Source: Candidatus Micrarchaeia archaeon (GTDB taxonomy: Archaea; Micrarchaeota; Micrarchaeia; Anstonellales; VGKX01). Taken from it: a DNA stretch of 64,000 nt. Positions 1,242 to 31,417 of the stretch are shown piece after piece. The notes below the pieces were generated by a model that saw only the letters and a program-made list of their open reading frames with translations, had not been told where the DNA came from and did not search any database. Numbering within the stretch: the stretch's first letter is position 1; each line of letters opens with the position of its first letter. Location of the stretch: assembly GCA_041650395.1 (NCBI GenBank), contig JBAZLG010000003.1:310917-374916 (forward strand). The letters are read 5' to 3'. Position numbers and translations under genes: made by a program.

Positions 1242-4200
1242 CTAATCTTCCTTTGGCGCGGGCGGCGCCGGCTTTTGCGGCCCTTCCTTTTGTTCCCGGA
1301 GGCCATAATCCCCGATAGGAATGTCCTGGGGCGGAACCTGCCCGTCGCCCTTGCCCCGCCTCCTCCTCGCCAGGAATTCCTTGACTGTCGCGGGCAGGCC
1401 GGACTTTGTCACAATAACTAGCTCTATGGCTGCGACTGCGATTCCAATCACGGGGTGCACAAACATGCCCGCGACCACTGGCAGCAATCCAAGCTCTATC
1501 GGGAAGAACGCCATGCCGATTGAAACGCGGTAAACCATGTACGCGGAGGCCGCAAGCACGAGCCACGCAAGCGGCAGGGCAATGGATTCCACGGGTATCT
1601 GCGGGAGCTGGATGCCCGGGGCAGGCACCACTTCGCCAAGCACGCACCTGCCTTCCATGTTGCAGAAGCCCGTGCAGCAGTCCGATGAAATCTGGCACTT
1701 TTGCAATAGCGGCGAGCACTCGGCGCACCTGTTTGCCACGCATTCGCCAGAGCAGCATTCCTTCGTGGACTGGCAGGACGCGCTTGGCAGCTTGCACTGC
1801 GACACCGGCAGGCGCGCCTCGCATACCGCCGCCTCGGAACAGTAGCCGGAGCAGCAGCTCGTGCCAAGCGAGCAGACCTGCCCGTCCGGCAGGCAAGCAG
1901 GCGGCTTGGCGCAGTCGACCACCTCGAACTGCTTTTCAGAATAGAGATAGCCATTGCGCACCGCAGTGACAACGAACGTGCCGTTTTGCGACGGCTGGAA
2001 TATGTATGCGCCCGTGCCGTTGTGGAACAGGCTTTCAGGCACCCTCACGTTTTTCACAATCCTGTAAAGGCTTAGTGTTGCGTCCGGCGGGCTGACCGAC
2101 GCGCTCCCGTAGAACTGGGTGCACTGCGCGTTCACTGTAAGGTTGATTGGCGGCAGCACAACAGGCGTCTGGTTGCGCTCAAGCGAGCATATGCCGTCCG
2201 TGCATATGCCCGAGCAGCAGTCATAATCGTTCTGGCACGAGACTGTCAGGTTGCGGCACGACGGCGGCACTGCGCAGGACTGGACAGTGAAGTACTTGCT
2301 TGTGGACGAATAGCCCACCTTGGACACTGAAAGCTGGTATGAGCCTGCCTCGGGCACGAAGACGTACTTGCCGGCGGAGGAGGTTGAAACAGACACGGGC
2401 GAGAGACCGAGGCTTGACGGCGTGACCTCGACAGAGGAGTCAAGCAGCTGGCGCGTGGCATAGTCCCTGACTGTTATGGTGGCGGTCTCGCCTGCGCAGG
2501 TAGCGGCGAGGTCGACTTGCAGCTTGCGCTCCACAGCCCCGCCTCCCGAAGACACGGGCGGCGGGCTTTGCGAGAGCGAGAACGTGGCATTGGCTGTGTG
2601 CGAATAGCCGAGGTAATCCGTTTCATAGAGCCTGACGGTATAGGTGCCATAGGCAGGCGCAGCCACAGAAAGGCTTGTGGCATTGCACGCTATGGCCGAG
2701 CTGTTTATCACAGTGCCGTTCGAGTCCGCAAGCTCGTAGGAGCACGATATGGAATTCTGCGGGTTGAGTATCCTGTAGACCATGGCGAAGTCGAGCGTGT
2801 CGGCAATGACCTGCGACTGCGCGGGCGACGCGATGCTTGCAGCAAGCTCGGAGAAGTCGGCCCGCAGCGCGAACACGGGGCTCGAGGTCGAATTCAGGCC
2901 GTCGGATATGACAGCCTGCCAGTAATAGGTCGTGTTGTCGGCAAGGCTGAAATATGCCGAAGGCGACGTGCCGGACTGGGCAAGCGCAAGAGACGACAGG
3001 CTCGTGCCAAGGTAGAACGAATAGTTGAGTGCTTGCAGGCTCGACTGCAGGTCCGTCGCATTTGCATAGACCTGCCAGGGCTGCTCGAAGGCCACAGTTG
3101 CGTTGGCGGACGATACAGAAACCAGGCTTGGCGGCGAGTTCTCCATGTAGGTCCTGGTGCCTGAATAGCCAAGCCTTGAATCCGTTGTCGCCACGAGAAC
3201 GGAATAGTTGTATGAGCCTGCCTGCGCAGTTGGGAGCGAATAGGAACAGTAGGCAGGCGGCGCCTGCGAACTCAACGTGCCATTGAAGCTTATGCCGTTG
3301 ATGGTGACAGTGCATGAAGAGATGTTTGCAACCGCGCTGATTGACGCGTTTATGTCAAGCCTGCCAGTGCTGCCTATGTAGTTTTGCGCGGGCGTGGGCG
3401 CCACGAACTGAACCGAAGGCGCGCTCAAGTCTATCGTGAAGTTCCACTCGCTGGAATTCGCAGAGAATCCGGTGCCGTCAAACCCTGCCACGCGCCAGTA
3501 ATACGTGCCTGGCGAGAGCGACAAGTTGGTTGCCGATGAAGTTGAAATGCCATAGAATGCCGGGCCTGGCGAAGTGCCCATGTAGAGGTAATACGACACA
3601 TTGTCGCCGTCAGGGTCGGCGGAGTCGGACCAGTCGAAGCTGACATTGCCGTTTGTCAGGACCTGCCCGCTTGAAGGCGCAATCAGGTACGGCGCCTGCG
3701 GGGCTGTGTTTTGCACGGTGAGGGCCGACGAGTTCGCCGCAGTGCCATTGAGGGTGCCGTCCGTCGGGACAACCTCAAGCGTCCAAATCTGGCCTTTCAC
3801 GACTTCAGAAGCGGGGATTGACGAGACAAGGCCGGAAACCCCCGACTGGAAGCCGGAGGCAAAGCCGGTCCTGTTCCTCGCCCCATTGAGGTACCATGAA
3901 TAGTAATACGATATTGAATCGCCATTGGGGTCAGTTGACGTGGCCCAGCCGTATATGGCGTTCTGCCTGGCAACGTAGGTGCCGTTTGTGGAATTGAGCA
4001 GGCTGACAGAACCCGCCTGCGGCGGCGCATTGGGTATCGACTGGATGGTGGTAGACGCCGACGCATTGGTGTAGTCTGTGCCGTCGAACGCGCTTGCAGT
4101 GCACGTCAGGTTAGTGCCTGCCGGGCAAGTGGATGCAGAGCATGCGAACTGGCTCGAGGATGAGAACGCCTGCACCACGCCGGAGCCAGTTGAGAACTGG

Positions 4201-23615: not shown

Positions 23616-23969
23616 TCAAGCCGTTTTCTTTGGGACAGATATTGCCGCGTCTTCAAGAAGCTTTTTCAGGCTGCCCGACGAGCGCAGGATTTGAAGGCGC
23701 GCCCTTTTGCCCTGTATAGCCCCGGAAATGGCAAGGCAGCCAAGCGCTTTCCTGTGCATCGCGTTTGAAACGCGGAAAACGCCCTTTTTAGATTCCATGT
23801 CGAGCCCGATTTTCTTGAAGCGCGCCCTGCTCATGCCAAGCGAGCCCAGGAAGGAGAACAATGAATTTGAAACGTGGTCCCATGCCTGGCCGGGGCTGAT
23901 TGAAGCCCTGTCAGGCCCGACTATCTTGAAGGCCACATACCTTTTTTTCGGATACAACGCCTTTGCCAT
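23616..23969 (-). CDS. rnp2: RNase P protein component 2 (Pop5)
   Basis: PKKRYVAFKIVGPD... N-terminus and the ...RLQILRSSGSLKKLLED C-terminus match the archaeal Pop5 pattern (KKRYIAFKVIS...IIKVLGVSGTIKRLKRKF). Confidence 0.75.
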   Translation of the reverse strand: MAKALYPKKRYVAFKIVGPDRASISPGQAWDHVSNSLFSFLGSLGMSRARFKKIGLDMESKKGVFRVSNAMHRKALGCLAISGAIQGKRARLQILRSSGSLKKLLEDAAISVPKKTA

Positions 23970-24041
23970 GATTACACCGGAATTTGACTTCGGGAAATTT
24001 CAATGAAGGCCGGAAATGGCAGCAAGCTGCCTGATTGGCCT

Positions 24042-24545
24042 TCACTCCCCCGTACCCTCCTGTACTGGTTTTTCCTTTTCCAGGTATATGTTCGCGATTG
24101 ATATGGCCTGCTTTGCCTTGGCCTCTTCCATGCCAAGCAGCAAGCCGAAGAAGACAAGCTCGCGTTCGGACGGGGCCATGAATTCCTCCCGCGCCATAGA
24201 GCACAGGATTACGCGCGCGCCTTCCTTCTTGCACGCCTTGATGAACAGCCGCGCCATGCCCAGCTTTTTTGCGATTGAAAACGGGCGGTTCTCGCCGCCC
24301 ATGACGAAATCGGAGAGCGGGAACGCGAAAGCGCCGTTGTTTTGCGCCACAGCCTTTATGGCCCCCGGGTCAAGCTCGTAGGATTTCAGGAAAAAAACAA
24401 GGGGCTTTTTTGCCATGTTGCCCAGGCTCTTGGCGTCCGCTGCGTAGATTATCCTGCTTTTGCAGTCATTGGCATTGTAAACAGACGAATAGCCGAGCTG
24501 GCGCAATGTGCCAATGTGCGTGAGAGCAATGTCGTAATATGCCAT
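24042..24545 (-). CDS. rnp3: RNase P protein component 3 (Rpp30), probably starting at the internal Met (MAYYDIALTH); compact, about 167 aa
   Basis: C-terminal ILCSMAREEFMAPSERELVFFGLLLGMEEAKAKQAIS matches the archaeal Rpp30 C-terminus ([34 protein letters not shown]). It is adjacent to pop5 as in the conserved rpp30-pop5 operon. The N-terminal 38 residues of the longer ORF (24042..24659) are hydrophobic junk and overlap the rpl15e 3' end. Confidence 0.65.
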   Translation of the reverse strand: MAYYDIALTHIGTLRQLGYSSVYNANDCKSRIIYAADAKSLGNMAKKPLVFFLKSYELDPGAIKAVAQNNGAFAFPLSDFVMGGENRPFSIAKKLGMARLFIKACKKEGARVILCSMAREEFMAPSERELVFFGLLLGMEEAKAKQAISIANIYLEKEKPVQEGTGE

Positions 24546-24639
24546 GATGACCAAGGGATATGCGCTGGAAAGAATAAAAAGCGGATTAAACGCCAGGAAA
24601 AAATGAAATTGAAAAAAAGAAAAAAGTGAAGGCAGGCCT

Positions 24640-25152
24640 TCAAGCCTGCTCGTAGCCATTGCCCCTGCCCCTCAAGCCCCTGTGCTTTTTGCCCGAGGAT
24701 GTCAGGCCCCTGAAGCCCCTGCCCATGTGCCTGTCTGTGCCATAGTAGACTTCGGAATCGAACATGAGGACTTCAAAGAACTGGTACTGCCCGTCCCTGC
24801 CAACGAAGTAGGAGTTGAGGACGTCCATGTTCCTGTAGCGCCTTGACGCCTTTTCCTCGGCTATTGCCTTGTAGGACTTGCCCGGGACGCGGTAGGCGGC
24901 GTTCTTTGCCGGCTTCCTTCCACCCCACGGGTGCGGCCTCTTCCTCTGGCCCCTGCCGGTCTTTACCCTGACGACGATTATGCCCTGCTTCGCCTTGTAG
25001 CCAAGCGAGCGTGCGCGCGCGAGGTTGGTGGGCTTTTCTACCCTGACAACCGTCGGCCCGCGCCTCCAGGTGGTAACGCGTTTCCTGTATTCGGGCGAGC
25101 GTTCCTTGTATTCCTTTTGGAAAGCCTCGCTAATGTACTTGTACATTCCCAT
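24640..25152 (-). CDS. rpl15e: Ribosomal protein L15e
   Basis: MGMYKYISEAFQKEYKER...LARARSLGYKAKQGIIVVRV...VLNSYFVGRDGQYQFFEVLMFD...FRGLTSSGKKHRGLRG matches L15e throughout. ATG chosen at 25152 (MGMYKY, cf. eukaryotic MGAYKY). TATA-like AATTAAAAAGGGG lies about 30 bp upstream. Confidence 0.9.
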   Translation of the reverse strand: MGMYKYISEAFQKEYKERSPEYRKRVTTWRRGPTVVRVEKPTNLARARSLGYKAKQGIIVVRVKTGRGQRKRPHPWGGRKPAKNAAYRVPGKSYKAIAEEKASRRYRNMDVLNSYFVGRDGQYQFFEVLMFDSEVYYGTDRHMGRGFRGLTSSGKKHRGLRGRGNGYEQA

Positions 25153-25651
25153 TCCAATCACCGTTGTGTTTTTTTGCCCCTTTTTAATTCGTTAATAGGG
25201 CTAGGCATCAAGACAATCAATGGACCAATCAAGGTTCAAGGCGAATCAATGCGCGAATCGGTTCAGGTAACGAACCCCACATTCCGAAAAGCTTCAGGAT
25301 ATACGAATCAAGGGTATTTAAAAGTAGCGGGGCAACCTAAAAGTAAATAAAGAGGAAATAGCGAATTAATGATGGGATGAATATGGACAAAAAGAACTCC
25401 ACAATTCTATCTGGCAAACAACTTGAGAGATACATAAACTCCGTTGACAAGGCCATTGAAAAAAGTTTTGCCGCTAACAAAAAGGCGCTGGAATACCTGG
25501 CCAAGAGATAGTGCAACCTCCATGGAATTCAGAGAGCACCGAAAAAATCAGGCAAGACACTGGAAATGTCTCTAGCAACTCTTTTTAAATAGGAAAAAGC
25601 AAGTTGAATCCAGGAAAGGGAGGATAGCTTATTCCGCATAGGTGCGACTTA

Positions 25652-27187
25652 ATGCAAATAACCGAGATAGTCAATCACGAATCAATAACAAACTTTGCCG
25701 AAAGATTGTCTAACTATTACTCCAATGAAAAGAAGGGGACAAACAAGAAAGAAAAAGGACAATATTTTACGCCTGCGAGTATCGCGGCATACATGGCATC
25801 ACTCGCTGATGTTCAATCCGAATCGATAAAAATACTTGATCCGGGAGCAGGTCTTGGGATACTTTCAGTTGCATTAATAGAAAAAATAAGAGAAAAAAAC
25901 AAGCGGCTAATCAATGTAGAATTGACATTATACGAGAACGACGAAAAAATTATACCTTACTTAAACGAAGTAATGAATATAATGAAGAAAAGACTTTCGA
26001 AATATAATGTAGGATTTAATTACGAAGTCAGACAAGAAGACTTCGTTGCATCTAATGTAAAATACATAACACCAAAACTTAATTCTTTTAACGAAGCGGA
26101 ATATCCGAAATACGATATAATAATATCTAACCCGCCTTATTTTAAAATAAATAAAAAAGAAATTGAAACCTACGGAATCGAGCAAATAACTGCAGGCCAG
26201 CCAAACATATACTACATTTTCATGGCAATTGCGACAAACATGCTAAGCAATGAAGGCCAAATGATATTCATTACACCAAGAAGCTTTTGCTCTGGGTTGT
26301 ATTATAGCAGTTTTAGGAATTGGCTAATCAAAAGAGTCCATTTCTCACAGGTCCACATATTCAAATCCAGGAAAAACGTGTTTGCAAAAGACAAGGTACT
26401 ACAGGAGAATGTGATAACCAAATTTACAAAGACCAAGCCACTAAAGATTGTCATGTCTACAAGTGAAGGAAGAGACATGGACGAGATAAAAAAAACAGAA
26501 GTAAATGAAGACGACATAATCTACAAATCTAACGGGCACATATTCTTCAGGTTGCCTGCGGATAAGGAAGAACTTGCAATAATAAGAAAACTGGACAAAT
26601 TGCCGATGAATTTCTACAAACTAGGGTACAAAATATCAACAGGAAAAGTAGTAGCCTTTAGAAATAGTGAATATTTGAAAAAAGAGATTGGTGAAAAAGA
26701 CATTCCGTTGATATGGATGCATAACATAAGAAATATGAGGATACTCTGGCCGAGCGAGAAAAATGGGAAGGCTAGGGCGATAGAAAAAAACGAAAAAACA
26801 AAAAAATTGCTAATAGAAAACGGCAATTACGTTGTTATGAAAAGATTTACCACAAAGGAACAGAAAAAAAGATTTGACGTTGCGCTTGTCACAGATGAAG
26901 ATTTTAAAAAACAAGGATATTTTGCATTAGACAATATGCTAAATTACATATATTGCCCTGGCAAAAAGCTGAATAGGGAAACAATAAGTGGCATTGCAGA
27001 ATATTTATCTCTCCCAATAGTGGACAGATATTTTAGGATATTAAACGGCCATACTCAGGTCAATGCAAATGAAGTCTACGCGCTTCCATTTCCAGAAGCA
27101 AAAAAATTAGAAAAAATAGGAAAGAACACTGATAAATTTGCTAATGAAAAACAGGAAAGAATATTGGAACAAATATTAACAAATTAG
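25652..27187 (+). CDS. N6-adenine DNA methyltransferase, gamma class (PstI/BsuBI/Eco57I-like), 511 aa
   Basis: QYFTP motif, motif I ILDPGAGLGILS, motif IV IISNPPYFKI. Size matches M.PstI/M.BsuBI-type enzymes. Confidence 0.85.
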   Translation: MQITEIVNHESITNFAERLSNYYSNEKKGTNKKEKGQYFTPASIAAYMASLADVQSESIKILDPGAGLGILSVALIEKIREKNKRLINVELTLYENDEKIIPYLNEVMNIMKKRLSKYNVGFNYEVRQEDFVASNVKYITPKLNSFNEAEYPKYDIIISNPPYFKINKKEIETYGIEQITAGQPNIYYIFMAIATNMLSNEGQMIFITPRSFCSGLYYSSFRNWLIKRVHFSQVHIFKSRKNVFAKDKVLQENVITKFTKTKPLKIVMSTSEGRDMDEIKKTEVNEDDIIYKSNGHIFFRLPADKEELAIIRKLDKLPMNFYKLGYKISTGKVVAFRNSEYLKKEIGEKDIPLIWMHNIRNMRILWPSEKNGKARAIEKNEKTKKLLIENGNYVVMKRFTTKEQKKRFDVALVTDEDFKKQGYFALDNMLNYIYCPGKKLNRETISGIAEYLSLPIVDRYFRILNGHTQVNANEVYALPFPEAKKLEKIGKNTDKFANEKQERILEQILTN

Positions 27188-27201
27188 GCAGGGGTTGTTT
27201 C

Positions 27202-28131
27202 ATGAGGAAAGTTGACGATGCACTGGAAATCTTGAGAGAGCTTAACGTGCCAAGAAAACAACAGAATGAAAGGACAGCCCTGACTCTATTGGCTTTACTC
27301 TCGCTAAAAAACAACAAGCCTTGGAAAAGTGCCAAGAAAACTTTGATAAGAATACATGACATCATGATTTTCATAAAAAATGAATACAAGAAGAAATACG
27401 CAGAAAACACCAGAGAAACAATAAGAAGACAAAGCCTTCACCAACTGGAAAAAGAAGTAGGAATTGTTGAAAGAAATTCAGATGACCCAACAAGACCAAC
27501 AAACAGCCCAAATACAAAATGGGCGGTTACAAAAGAGGCACTTGAAACAATAAGAAGCTACGGGACAAAACAATGGAAAAAGAATGTGGACAATCTGATG
27601 CAAAAGCGAGGAAGAAGTGAAAGCTCCGGCTGGCAACGCGCAAAACCCGCACAAGGAGTAATTATAGATGAGAAGGAATATCCCTTGTCGCCAGGAAAAC
27701 ATAATAAACTCCAAATAGACATAATTGGAAACTTCAGGGAAATTTTTTGCAAAGACGCAGAAGTGCTTTATTTCGGTGACACCGCTAAGAAAATGCTCTT
27801 CTTAAATGAAAAGAAATTGAAGGAGATAGGACTGAAGATAACAAAACATGAAATATTGCCAGACATTGTCCTACTGGACAATGCCAAAAATAGACTTTAT
27901 CTTATAGAAGCAGTTACATCACATGGCCCAGTATCAAAGAAGAGACAAATTGAATTGACAGAGTACTTCGCAAAAGTCGGCTTTAAAAAAATTTTTGTCA
28001 GCGCTTTCCCCGACTTTAAAGAATTCAAAAGGCATATAGATGACATCGCTTGGGAAACAGAAGTGTGGATAGCTGAAATGCCGGAGCACATGATTCATTT
28101 CAACGGCGACAAGTTCCTAAAAATAGACTGA
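27202..28131 (+). CDS. Candidate cognate restriction endonuclease (BsuBI/PstI family), 309 aa
   Basis: It starts 15 bp after the methyltransferase stop on the same strand in the AT-rich island. The size and the N-terminal winged-helix-like region followed by a C-terminal acidic/Lys-rich region are consistent with the R.BsuBI/PstI family. The assignment is from gene context and memory only, with no alignment. Confidence 0.5.
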   Translation: MRKVDDALEILRELNVPRKQQNERTALTLLALLSLKNNKPWKSAKKTLIRIHDIMIFIKNEYKKKYAENTRETIRRQSLHQLEKEVGIVERNSDDPTRPTNSPNTKWAVTKEALETIRSYGTKQWKKNVDNLMQKRGRSESSGWQRAKPAQGVIIDEKEYPLSPGKHNKLQIDIIGNFREIFCKDAEVLYFGDTAKKMLFLNEKKLKEIGLKITKHEILPDIVLLDNAKNRLYLIEAVTSHGPVSKKRQIELTEYFAKVGFKKIFVSAFPDFKEFKRHIDDIAWETEVWIAEMPEHMIHFNGDKFLKID

Positions 28132-28155
28132 CAAAAATAGCAAGAGGAAAAATTA

Positions 28156-28590
28156 ATGGGAAGGAACGAGATAAATGAATCGCTAAAAGATATAGCAACT
28201 CTTCTAGCAAAATACATAATCACAGCATTTGTATTTACTGCACTAGGAATCATTTTGATAATGCTTGTTCTTGGAATAAACCTACAGGAAATAAGAGAAA
28301 AAATAATGGGAGCATATGTAGTGAATATCGTAGCTGGCGCTGTTATTGTATTAGTGATGGCGAAATATGAAAAAAATAGAGAATTAACTTGGAAACTCGC
28401 AGGTCTTACCCTGTTAATAGTAATTTTTGCAGGGTTAGCTATTGGACAAATTATCGAATATAAAACTGTTCAAATCGACTACCTATTAGGACTAGTTAGC
28501 AGTTTAGTTATTGCATTTACTCTGTTAGGAATAACAAAAGATACTAATAATATGAATTCCTCTGCTCCCTCATCTCCTTCTGAGAAATAA
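28156..28590 (+). CDS. Small 4-TM membrane protein (144 aa), last gene of the AT-rich island
   Basis: Four hydrophobic helices. AT-rich codon usage like the R-M genes. Confidence 0.5.
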   Translation: MGRNEINESLKDIATLLAKYIITAFVFTALGIILIMLVLGINLQEIREKIMGAYVVNIVAGAVIVLVMAKYEKNRELTWKLAGLTLLIVIFAGLAIGQIIEYKTVQIDYLLGLVSSLVIAFTLLGITKDTNNMNSSAPSSPSEK

Positions 28591-28606
28591 GGGAGGTTTG
28601 GAGAAC

Positions 28607-29692
28607 TCAGGAATTCTCAGTCTCAAAGTCAAGCGAGCTTATGGCTGCGACCTGGCCAGAAGGGAGGTACATGCTCACAGGCGAGAAAGTGATTGAGTTG
28701 CCTTCGTGCTTCCTCGAGCCTATGTTGAGGTGGATTGAGCGCGGCTCCGCGCCCTCGTAGGACACTTCGAACTGCGCCACGACGACGCCGTCCGAGCCGC
28801 CCATTATCTCCGAGATGGTCTCCCTGACGAACGTGCTCTCGAACATGTCCAATAGAGCGTGGCGCGCGTTCTCGTCGACCTTGAATGATTTCCTTATCCC
28901 GTTATGCGTGGATTTCAATGTCACGTGCTTGCGGTCTATGAGGACCTTGCCCGCCACGAGCTGGATAAGGGACTTGACAAGCGCCACCTTGAACTTCTCA
29001 AACGAGCCTGCGGACGGCAAAAGCCCGGCTGGCGCGGACGGGGCGAGCATGGGCGGGGCTGGCTCGGGCATTGACTCCACAAGCCCTGAAATCTGTTTTA
29101 TGTTCTTCCTGATTTTGTCAAAATTCGAAAGCGCCTTTTCCGACTCGCCAAGCGAGGACGGCTGGGAATACAGCTTGCGCCTGATTTCCGAGAACTCGGC
29201 TGAAAGCGCTGCGAGCCTGCGCGAATTCTCCGACAGCTCCTCTTCCGACAACTGCCCGCCGTTTGATATCGCCTGGACAGAGGAATCGTTTATCAGGCCC
29301 TCAAGCTCCACCATGTTGCCAGCGAAATCCGCGCTAAGGTCGGAGGCGTTCTGGTGCATGTCCATTGCGTAAAGGTTTTCCGAAAGTGCCTTTGACGCGT
29401 CGACTATCCTGTTATAGGACTCGACAACCTGTTCCTTTTCCTGCGACTGGCCGGAGGGCCTTTTGAGCACGTCGGCTATGGCATTTGACAGGGAAAGGAG
29501 GAAAAGCGAGTCCTCATATACGCGCTGGGGCGAGACAGTGCCAGCCATGGCAAGGTTGTGCATGAGATGGGACTTCAATGATGCGTGGCTTGAATGCAGG
29601 TCGGCAATCCTTTGCCAGTATTCAGGTTCGCTAAGGGTGCGCGGCTTGCTGGACGCATGCCCCCGGCTGGCCTTTTTTCTGCTCTTTGACAT
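28607..29692 (-). CDS. Hypothetical coiled-coil protein with a C-terminal alpha/beta domain (362 aa from MSKSRKK), co-directional with the cysteine-ladder protein
   Basis: Long ORF. The internal Met at 29692 is preceded by a TATA-like TTACATTAAAT about 20-25 bp upstream. The central region is Ser/Glu/Leu-rich with heptad-like periodicity. No known motif. Confidence 0.5.
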   Translation of the reverse strand: MSKSRKKASRGHASSKPRTLSEPEYWQRIADLHSSHASLKSHLMHNLAMAGTVSPQRVYEDSLFLLSLSNAIADVLKRPSGQSQEKEQVVESYNRIVDASKALSENLYAMDMHQNASDLSADFAGNMVELEGLINDSSVQAISNGGQLSEEELSENSRRLAALSAEFSEIRRKLYSQPSSLGESEKALSNFDKIRKNIKQISGLVESMPEPAPPMLAPSAPAGLLPSAGSFEKFKVALVKSLIQLVAGKVLIDRKHVTLKSTHNGIRKSFKVDENARHALLDMFESTFVRETISEIMGGSDGVVVAQFEVSYEGAEPRSIHLNIGSRKHEGNSITFSPVSMYLPSGQVAAISSLDFETENS

Positions 29693-29827
29693 CTTGACCA
29701 CGGCTTGATTTAATGTAATGAACCTGTTAATAAACCTTGACATAAAACAAGGCGGAAAACAGGGCAGAAACAAAGTGCAAATCCCGCGTCCATTGGCAGG
29801 GCATGCCCGCGCAAGGCAGGAAAAACA

Positions 29828-31417
29828 TCATTTCGCCCCAAGCGTGAATATGCCCGCGCTTGTAGATTTGTTCCTTTCAAGCTCCCCCGCAAGCTGGGAC
29901 ACTATGGATTCCTTGACTGCCAGGTACTTGTCCCTTGGCATTGCGAGATTGCCTATCGCGTGGCGAAGCCCCTTGGAATTGAAGCAGAACATGCTATCAG
30001 ACAGCGCTTCCGAATTGTGGCAGAAATACGAGTCCGAGCACTTGGCGCACGAGTCAAGCTCGAAACACCTGTTGAGGTGCTGGGAATTGTAGCATTTCAG
30101 CGCGAACTGGGATTCGAGGACCCTGTAACAGCCATAGGCGTATTTTGAATTCAGGGCAAAGGAGCATAGCCCGATGTTTTCCGCATATACCGCGTCGTGC
30201 CCCTTGTAGGCATTGACCACATTGAACGCGTGCGGGAATGATACGAGCCCGGAATTCTGCCCGTCTGCAAGTTCAGGTGTAAAATAGGCTATTTCAGGCA
30301 GGGCACTGATTGCGGATGCGAGGTCCTCTATCTTGGCGCTTGCCGGGATTTTCCCAAGAGCCAGGGACTCGCGCATGGAGACCGTCCTTTTCACGGGGTA
30401 TTCCCTGAAAAAGGGGAGGGTCGATGGAAGCCAGGTGGCATCTCCAAACGCAGAGCGGACTGGCGACATGCCGACGCTTCCTTGCGAGAGCCACTCCCCG
30501 TATTCCCTTATGCCCGCCGGCTTCCTGCCAAAAAGCATGGAATAAGTGGCTGAAAAGCCCTTCTCGACCTGGCTTATGTCGGTACAAGCCTGCTGCGCCG
30601 GAAGGCCCAGGCCTGCACGCCCGGGCGGTTCCGAATCGCCTGCAAGTTCCAGCAAAGACGGGAACTCCCCGTCCCTTTCAAGCGCATCCGCCGCCTCGCC
30701 GAGTATTTTGGATTTTATGGCGAGATATTTGTCGCGGGGCAGCTGGAGGTTTCCGACGCAATACGCCCTGTTCCTCTGCCCGAAGCAAAAGAGCATGTCA
30801 TGGGAATTCAGCACATTGTGCGAGAAATAACAGTCGCTTGCCATGCCCACTATGGAACATTCAAAAGAGCGCTTCTGCCCGAAAGAGTCGAAAACGCGCA
30901 CGAGGAACTCGCCGGCGCCAAGCATGCCGGAGCCGAATATGTTCCTGCTGCCCTTCCTTACCATGAAGGAGGACGCGACGCACCGGGATTCCTCCACATT
31001 GCCGGAATTCATGACGTTTTGCGAGTCCAGGACAATGTCCGAGTCAATCACGCCCGAACTTGAGCCGAGATGCCTGTTGCCCGCGTATGCGGCCTGCCCG
31101 CGCATGCCCTCAAGTATAGAATCGAGGTCCTTGACCTGGTTTATGCCAAGTGAAAATGGCTTGTTGATTTCAACCTCTTCAGCGGAGACAAAGCGCGAGC
31201 CGCCAGCATAGCAGTCCATGGCAAGGGACACGCTCCTGCCCGAAACACATGATTTCCTCCTGGCGCGTGCGGGCATTGAGCGCGAAAGCCATGCCTCGTA
31301 TTTCCCGAGCGGGCCTATGCTCCTGCCAAAAATTATCCTGCATGTGGAATCCCATGCCGCCTCAACGGCGGCGCCCGCGCCCGCATCCCCGGGCGCCCGG
31401 ATTGTCTTGGTTGCCAT
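29828..31417 (-). CDS. Hypothetical internally duplicated protein: 2 x [Cys/Ser-ladder beta-solenoid-like repeats of about 12 aa, followed by a GNLxxPRDKYLAxK...ELER helix]
   Basis: The two halves are readable by eye: ...CSIVGMASDCYFSHNVLNSHDMLFCFGQRNRAYCVGNLQLPRDKYLAIKSKILGEAADALERDGEF and ...CYNSQHLNRCFELDSCAKCSDSYFCHNSEALSDSMFCFNSKGLRHAIGNLAMPRDKYLAVKESIVSQLAGELERN. No family recognised. Confidence 0.55.
   Translation of the reverse strand: MATKTIRAPGDAGAGAAVEAAWDSTCRIIFGRSIGPLGKYEAWLSRSMPARARRKSCVSGRSVSLAMDCYAGGSRFVSAEEVEINKPFSLGINQVKDLDSILEGMRGQAAYAGNRHLGSSSGVIDSDIVLDSQNVMNSGNVEESRCVASSFMVRKGSRNIFGSGMLGAGEFLVRVFDSFGQKRSFECSIVGMASDCYFSHNVLNSHDMLFCFGQRNRAYCVGNLQLPRDKYLAIKSKILGEAADALERDGEFPSLLELAGDSEPPGRAGLGLPAQQACTDISQVEKGFSATYSMLFGRKPAGIREYGEWLSQGSVGMSPVRSAFGDATWLPSTLPFFREYPVKRTVSMRESLALGKIPASAKIEDLASAISALPEIAYFTPELADGQNSGLVSFPHAFNVVNAYKGHDAVYAENIGLCSFALNSKYAYGCYRVLESQFALKCYNSQHLNRCFELDSCAKCSDSYFCHNSEALSDSMFCFNSKGLRHAIGNLAMPRDKYLAVKESIVSQLAGELERNKSTSAGIFTLGAK

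Follow-up and report, generated by a model that had tools for sequence, protein, structure and literature searches.

A stretch of 64,000 nucleotides (nt) from a Candidatus Micrarchaeia archaeon (contig JBAZLG010000003.1), referred to here as the window and numbered from its first letter, is interrupted by an AT-rich block between the ribosomal protein gene rpl15e and a lineage-specific hypothetical gene. The block carries a methyltransferase gene (M) and a restriction endonuclease gene (R). We read the locus as an ordinary, apparently intact type II restriction-modification (R-M) pair of the PstI/BsuBI family that arrived by horizontal transfer and replaced a doc toxin gene, leaving doc's small upstream open reading frame (ORF) behind as a leftover partner, and we give this reading a probability of about 0.85. 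Its R-M part is ordinary because NCBI already names the exact R protein 'BsuBI/PstI family type II restriction endonuclease [Candidatus Micrarchaeia archaeon]', and R has more than 7,600 relatives at E <= 1e-10. The features of the acquired block are as follows.

25537-25651, plus strand: region upstream of M that came with the cassette, with no homology to the relatives' contigs L007 or L032.
25584-25591: archaeal TATA-like box TTTAAATA, 60 nt before the M start codon, as read from the sequence.
25652-27187, plus strand: M, gamma-type N6-adenine DNA methyltransferase, 511 amino acids (aa), identified by Pfam, PADLOC and motifs.
27202-28131, plus strand: R, BsuBI/PstI-family type II restriction endonuclease, 309 aa, starting 14 nt past the M stop codon.
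28156-28590, plus strand: ORF of 144 aa with four hydrophobic segments, an ORFan, starting 24 nt past the R stop codon.

Both domains that define the endonuclease family are present in R. The N-terminal winged helix-turn-helix domain (residues 1-136) matches Pfam PF17728 (BsuBI_PstI_RE_N) at 2.2e-46, with 157.6 bits against a cut-off of 27, and the C-terminal nuclease domain (residues 156-302) matches PF06616 (BsuBI_PstI_RE) at 3.9e-56, with 189.2 bits against a cut-off of 27 and over positions 7-153 of the 154 in the profile. R also aligns collinearly with the restriction enzyme SdaI (PDB 2ixs) over residues 4-306 (2e-44, 32.5% identity), and matches the full-length PADLOC model REase_II at 1.2e-89. 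An earlier reading of this DNA, made from the sequence only, had taken the 309-aa protein for a BsuBI/PstI-family endonuclease, and the two Pfam domains and the end-to-end match to SdaI bear this out; far from lacking similarity to restriction endonucleases, this second gene matches both PF17728 and PF06616.

The R protein is full length and free of frameshifts. Of the 92 alignment columns with a conservation of at least 95% across 119 homologues it retains 88, all four deviations being conservative, and the residues of the nuclease core (P220, D221, E236, V238, H241, G242, P243, K247 and R248) are all in place in what is predicted to be a PD-(D/E)XK-type domain. Where SdaI has E-A-V-K, R has E-A-V-T. 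This was considered as a possible inactivating change and ruled out, as T is found in all close relatives and in the R protein of Stx2a prophages; T at the position of SdaI's K thus reads as the family norm and not as a defect.

M carries the motifs QYFTP (at residue 37), DPGAGLG (at 63) and NPPY (at 160), in the order expected of the gamma class, with S-adenosylmethionine motif I (DPGAGLG) before catalytic motif IV (NPPY). The Pfam models Eco57I (1.3e-17) and N6_Mtase (1.4e-11) both match above their gathering cut-offs and together cover residues 30-249, and the full-length PADLOC model MTase_II (PDLC03227) matches residues 16-507 at 4.2e-120. The located ORF and motifs, together with Pfam and PADLOC, agree with the 511-aa gamma-class N6-adenine methyltransferase recognised earlier from these same three motifs. 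The C-terminal 250 residues of M align only with PstI/BsuBI-type methylases, and this part is presumably the target-recognition region.

M and R adjoin on the same strand, 14 nt apart, and the same M-R pairing is found in five related cassettes (L002-L006, the five closest contexts that were readable), on a Haematospirillum plasmid and in Stx2a prophages. The 14-nt gap, the Pfam and PADLOC matches and the alignment to SdaI all agree with the tightly linked type II R-M pair of the PstI/BsuBI family that had been proposed. Another PADLOC model, PDLC03359 (840 positions), matches the M of the window at positions 7-507 and its R at 531-836 as if the two were fused. On the Bacillus cereus plasmid pBCK802 (L037, 2426-4933), one ORF of 835 aa bears the annotation of a BsuBI/PstI-family endonuclease and has a length that would fit such a methyltransferase-endonuclease fusion.

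From knowledge of the family, we infer how this pair would function. An AT-rich TATA-type promoter of its own, just upstream of M, probably drives both genes, M being read first and R following 14 nt past the M stop; the TATA-like box at 25584-25591 may serve as this promoter. M would N6-methylate adenine in a short palindromic site of the host DNA, the likeliest being CTGCAG or a site containing CTGCAG. In a manner similar to SdaI, R would recognise the same site through its N-terminal winged helix and cut it with its C-terminal PD-(D/E)XK-type nuclease if the site is unmethylated, as it would be on viral or plasmid DNA entering the cell.

The closest system with a reported specificity is the EcoGIII-type pair of Stx2a prophages in E. 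coli O104:H4 and O145:H28, aligned here through the records L039 and L040. It consists of the same two families in M-then-R order with a very short junction; its R is 40% identical to that of the window over 98% of the length, and its M aligns end to end at 31% identity over 481 aa (2e-77). Both R proteins carry a PD...E-x-V-T-S-H-G-P...K-R block, which they share in the form PD...EAVTSHGP...KR. The prophage system methylates 98.8% of CTGCAG sites (PMC3893438), and the R of the Stx2a prophage of strain RM13514 is described, with reference to earlier biochemistry, as identical to a biochemically active one (PMC3893438). That system belongs to a bacterial prophage, whereas the cassette of the window lies in an archaeal chromosome with no linked phage genes, and at 31-40% identity the same recognition site is not to be assumed.

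SdaI has a winged helix in its N domain and the nuclease in its C domain, and its collinearity with R would imply the same two-domain fold for the archaeal enzyme. The two proteins differ in that SdaI has E-A-V-K where R and the PstI-like majority have E-A-V-T, and in that SdaI lacks the K of the downstream K-R pair. SdaI reportedly recognises CCTGCAGG, an 8-bp site. PstI of Providencia stuartii and BsuBI of Bacillus subtilis, the founders of PF06616 and PF17728, were compared through the Pfam profiles: R has both domains, and here as there the partner is an N6-adenine methyltransferase of about 500 aa.

The foreign origin of the block is seen in its composition. In a 400-nt sliding window, the G+C fraction (GC) is 0.53-0.59 in the flanks, drops to 0.32-0.41 at about 25200-28600 and recovers within 200 nt. 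The interval 25331-28561 has a GC of 0.357, against 0.556 in the remaining window; the lowest-GC 3-kb stretch of the 64 kb lies inside it, and all 3-kb windows below 0.47 GC overlap it. GC at third codon positions (GC3) is 0.36 in M, 0.40 in R and 0.23 in the 144-aa ORF, against 0.64-0.80 in six neighbouring host genes. The strikingly low-GC block, put at 3.4 kb in the sequence-only reading, is thus set off by a sharp discontinuity in both sliding-window GC and GC3, at a length of about 3.2 kb. The R-M block is horizontally acquired, and the earlier description of an AT-rich acquired island is upheld by this break and by the existence of an empty site in a related genome.

Three allelic states of the site are found. 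A genome scan with ribosomal protein L15e led to L007, a contig of a Micrarchaeota metagenome-assembled genome whose L15e is 89% identical, and the allele it carries is found in contigs of three independent assemblies: L034, L035 (the L007 record again) and L036 (534 bp). L007 is syntenic with the window on both sides (23662-25536 and 28611-30565 by blastn). M, R and the 144-aa ORF are all missing from L007 and L034, with a 199-aa Fic/Doc ORF in their place. This ORF matches Pfam Fic at 35.6 bits against a gathering score of 24 and has the Doc-type motif HPFSDGNKR; against TIGR01550 (DOC_P1) it scores 1e-6 and 28.8 bits, below the curated cut-off of 38.65 bits. The Doc Fic-fold motif, H-x-F-x-(D/N)-(A/G)-N-K-R, is found in the sister genome only, the window holding five codons of doc. 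In the empty allele, L032, the hypothetical gene and rpl15e are 317 bp apart; homology to the window stops at 25330 and resumes at 28607.

Comparison with these relatives shows that the low-GC block is a composite of three layers of different age, with these parts.

25147-25330: first layer, conserved host intergenic DNA upstream of rpl15e, outside the island; homology to L007/L034 and L032 runs to 25330.
25331-25536, plus strand: second layer, remnant of an older toxin-antitoxin insertion, absent in L032 and present in L007/L034.
25383 (or 25377)-25511, plus strand: small ORF of 42 aa (44 aa from 25377), a putative antitoxin, whose homologue stands before doc in the sister genome.
25522-25536, plus strand: doc stub consisting of the start codon and four further codons, ATGGAATTCAGAGAG; the L007 counterpart is ATGGAATTCAAAGAG.
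about 25537-28561, plus strand: third layer, the R-M insertion proper, with no homology in L007 or L032.

On the left, homology to L007 passes the stop of the small ORF, the spacer and five doc codons, and stops abruptly after 25536. On the right, a 13-nt match, CTGCTCCYTCATC, starts at 28562 and is followed by the end of the hypothetical gene, both being common to the window and L007. The doc allele (L007/L034) and the empty allele (L032) thus provide the island-free relatives whose comparison the sequence-only reading had suggested for defining boundaries. That reading had put the insertion between the upstream region of rpl15e and the hypothetical gene, and this holds, given the empty site in L032; its limits of 25190-28600 do not hold, as they lump the three layers.

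The hexamer GAATTC occurs at 25525-25530 and 28554-28559, within 7 nt of both M-R junctions, and again at 28611-28616 at the stop codon of the hypothetical gene; the window has 36 copies against 18 expected from dinucleotide shuffles. This is a post hoc observation that may reflect short-homology recombination or coincidence. In the empty-site allele, L032 has a tandem duplication of TCAGGAATTCTC(R)T(Y)CT(Y)AAA at 1935-2075 (reverse strand), just past the stop of the hypothetical gene, and part of the right-junction spacer of the window (28573-28590) resembles the first copy of this duplication.

All four of the flanking proteins compared pair the window with L007/L034 and place L032 outside. 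According to the model that we propose, the site between rpl15e and the lineage-specific gene was originally empty, as it is in L032, and the common ancestor of the window genome and L007 would then have gained a toxin-antitoxin-like pair made of the small ORF and a Doc (Fic-family) toxin. A low-GC M-R cassette from a gene pool of the DPANN type or the candidate phyla radiation (CPR) type would later have replaced doc from codon 6 to just past its stop, presumably by illegitimate or short-homology recombination, with no integrase or transposase involved. This replacement would have orphaned the small ORF and left a novel 144-aa membrane ORF reading across the right junction.

The small ORF is, on this comparison, the orphaned partner of the Doc pair and no regulator of the R-M system. 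Its homologue in L007/L034, a genome with no R-M system, has 41 aa, is 90% identical at the amino acid level and lies 10 nt upstream of the 199-aa Fic/Doc gene on the same strand. Between codons 9 and 42, the window and L007/L034 differ by eight synonymous codons and one non-synonymous codon, and the small ORF is therefore a real gene under purifying selection. Among 5.8 billion proteins it forms two clusters only, that of the window and that of the sister genome, and a metagenome scan with a degenerate pattern of its 3' end retrieved no further alleles. It had been suggested from the sequence that this ORF might be a controller-like element. The suggestion fails: the ORF has no helix-turn-helix (HTH) or other match in Pfam, NCBIfam or PADLOC, it is not upstream of M in any of the five related cassettes, and its sole homologue precedes doc in a genome free of R-M genes. 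We therefore ruled out a controller (C) protein, there being neither an Xre-type HTH nor co-occurrence with R-M genes in relatives.

The position of the small ORF makes it a putative antitoxin. The sister-genome pair resembles Phd-Doc and other Fic-family modules in that a small ORF stands 10 nt before a Fic-fold protein with H-x-F-x-D-G-N-K-R. It differs from them in that the upstream ORF, of 41-42 aa, matches no Phd, YefM or other antitoxin family, and in that the Doc-like protein, of 199 aa, has an extra C-terminal region; the window further differs in keeping the small ORF only.

The 144-aa ORF is not a component of the R-M system. An exhaustive phmmer search against 1.84 billion representative proteins returned the ORF itself and one spurious hit, a 3143-aa repeat protein that was matched 20 times through compositional bias and was rejected as a homologue. 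In L002-L006 the ORF is not found downstream of R. The ORF ends in DNA that was already present at the site: its final ~10 codons and stop codon fall in the part from 28562 on, where the window is again homologous to the L007 spacer. One gene caller skipped it. We treat it as an ORFan whose reality as a gene is doubtful; it may be young or chimeric. The sequence-only reading had listed a small protein with four transmembrane segments in the island; an ORF with four hydrophobic stretches is indeed there, but not as a conserved part of the R-M system, given its absence from the five cassettes.

In the related cassettes, L002-L006, an M of 508-515 aa is directly followed by an R of 309-310 aa, and the lengths of the two window proteins match those of these relatives. 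Identity to L002 is 63% for M and 70% for R, and to L003-L006 it is 54-55% for M and 65-66% for R, M and R diverging together. The neighbours of the cassette are unrelated from case to case: ATP synthase, deoxyhypusine synthase with a Kiwa system, or leucyl-tRNA synthetase. GC of the cassette is 0.32-0.37 throughout the clade, with flanks at 0.46-0.50 in L002 and L005/L006; L003/L004 are the exception, the cassette there having the composition of the DNA around it. The closest relatives of R bear DPANN and CPR names, and the low-GC cassette appears to move among small-genome lineages, DPANN archaea and CPR bacteria. In one relative (L003 9107-10574 and L004 6569-8036), a cassette of this clade lies about 2 kb from a Kiwa (KwaA/KwaB) pair, forming a small defence island.

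An island borne by an integrase or a transposase was considered and not found: the interval from rpl15e to the flanking hypothetical gene holds no integrase- or recombinase-like ORF, no tRNA gene that could have been a target occurs in the 64-kb window, and at the edges of the block there are only short AT-rich repeats at chance level, with no terminal inverted repeats or target-site duplication. ORF, Pfam and repeat checks thus concur with the earlier remark that integrase and target-site duplication are absent. Furuta, Abe and Kobayashi (2010, PMC2853133) found substitution-type R-M rearrangements to be common, with 116 locus pairs. The present locus resembles the substitution class described there in having an R-M unit where a relative has unrelated DNA, conserved flanks, a lower-GC insert and no integrase or transposase. 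It differs in that a Doc toxin gene was displaced while the small ORF upstream of it stayed in place, in having no long target duplication, and in that the host is a DPANN archaeon, the cases compared being bacterial.

A number of observations weigh against our reading or restrict it. The toxin-antitoxin remnant is still AT-rich although it dates back to the ancestor shared with L007, and low GC alone is therefore no proof of a recent M-R insertion. The polarity among the three taxa comes from pairwise identities, with no rooted tree, and the small ORF has neither similarity to an antitoxin family nor homologues outside the lineage. As to specificity, identities of only 40% to the CTGCAG-type enzyme and 32.5% to SdaI are too low to assign a site. 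CTGCAG itself is observed 15 times in the window, one of them inside M, against 22.5 expected; this ratio of 0.67 is mid-table among the 64 six-base palindromes, so avoidance of CTGCAG was dropped as a clue and the DNA of the window holds no independent signature of CTGCAG specificity. After a recent acquisition no avoidance would be expected, although this does not count as positive evidence.

GATC, in contrast to expectation, is nearly absent from the whole window, with 9 sites where a Markov model expects 101 (ratio 0.09); the site at 25838 lies inside the foreign M gene. CTAG (0.43) and GGCC (0.57) are likewise low. The scarcity of GATC suggests long-term pressure from a GATC-targeting restriction system in the lineage, in its host or in viruses.

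Alternative explanations of the locus have to be weighed against this background. The pair could be a decayed or solitary relic in which M works and R is inactive, so that the locus would act only as an epigenetic or orphan-methylase element. Activity is not provable from sequence, decay of R genes does occur in the family, the annotation of the ArgO145 prophage copy showing a frameshift and in-frame stops, and CTGCAG sites are not depleted in the window. Yet R is full length, has no frameshift and keeps 88 of 92 near-invariant positions, and it has the PD, E-x-V-T-S-H-G-P and K-R blocks in common with the R of the Stx2a-prophage system, which is reported active (PMC3893438). Moreover, M and R have diverged from their relatives at similar rates, which argues for joint purifying selection on the two, and we regard a relic as quite improbable. 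One could also imagine that the 144-aa membrane protein functions as a partner of M and R in a defence unit of three genes, for example as a membrane effector or an exclusion protein. An ORF of 435 nt is improbable by chance in DNA of 33% GC, and this one, which encodes four clear hydrophobic segments, is on the strand of R, begins 24 nt beyond the R stop and has a GAGG 8-9 nt upstream of its ATG. Such a unit is nonetheless unlikely, since the ORF has no homologue in 1.84 billion representative proteins, stands beside no related cassette, was left uncalled by one gene caller, takes its C-terminal ~10 codons and stop from pre-existing host spacer, and with a GC3 of 0.23 is unlike M and R.

The history of the site could also run in reverse, M-R being ancestral with the small ORF as its own regulator and doc having replaced M-R in the L007 lineage. 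With only three alleles and no rooted tree the direction is inferred, and the small ORF is present in both alleles. However, the window has the ATG of doc and the next four codons in register, past the small ORF stop by the same 10-nt spacer, and such a stub can only be understood as a remnant of doc. The small ORF is in none of the five related M-R cassettes, it forms with doc a tight two-gene unit, 10 nt apart, in L007, L034 and L036, and it has no HTH domain, unlike known C proteins. We consider a reverse history very improbable. A more elaborate version of the replacement of doc by M-R would have the locus record a competition of two addiction modules: the M-R cassette would have deleted doc without killing the cell as the antitoxin stayed, the orphan ORF would now act in anti-addiction against Doc-carrying elements, and the 144-aa ORF would be a newborn gene recruited to the R-M operon. 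This version is speculative, and we hold it to be improbable.

The host DNA on both sides of the replaced segment comprises the following features.

24640-25146, minus strand: rpl15e, ribosomal protein L15e, the left host flank (Pfam Ribosomal_L15e 2.7e-47; 168 aa in the L001 gene call).
25260-25276: hairpin GGTTCAGGTAACGAACC, upstream of rpl15e.
25312-25330: palindromic TATA-like element GGGTATTTAAAAGTAGCGG, upstream of rpl15e.
28561-28606: right junction and residual spacer common to the relatives, with CTGCTCCCTCATC at 28562-28574 followed by a 26-nt indel.
28607-29773, minus strand: lineage-specific hypothetical protein, the right host flank, with no Pfam match.

The L15e protein is 90% identical to the L034/L007 orthologue and 84% identical to that of L032. 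The hairpin, which is perfectly conserved, and the TATA-like element are present 115-185 nt upstream of rpl15e in the window, L034 and L032, and are better conserved than the intergenic DNA around them; this conserved region may have a promoter role. Its fold is not better than that of shuffled sequence (z = 0.45), and an Rfam scan of 24900-28800 gave one sub-threshold chance match, to mt-tmRNA (24 bits against a gathering score of 65). On the right side, alignments show solid three-way homology from about 28605. The hypothetical protein there has only three homologues among 5.8 billion proteins, and its orthologues border the same site in L007/L034 and L032. Further out, Rpp14 and rpl15e are separated by a 205-aa ORF (24042-24659, minus strand), of which 20 nt overlap the 3' end of rpl15e. 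This ORF has only a sub-threshold match to RNase P p30 (21 bits against a gathering score of 35) and is probably a divergent Rpp30. On the other side, a Cys-rich hypothetical protein of 529 aa (29828-31417, minus strand) has no Pfam match, is conserved in L007 and contains an internal duplication, its two halves being about 25% identical by tblastn.

The R-M system alone matters little, as it is a routine, automatically annotated member of a very large family. If the organism is cultured or transformed, the system predicts a barrier at CTGCAG-type sites, and for annotation the locus carries the caution that a small ORF upstream of an R-M operon need not be a controller. Of wider interest is the clean series of three alleles, empty, Doc toxin-antitoxin and R-M, at one site in Micrarchaeia, which points to selfish or defence modules turning over in DPANN archaea without the help of an integrase, with the same low-GC cassette clade apparently circulating among DPANN archaea and CPR bacteria.

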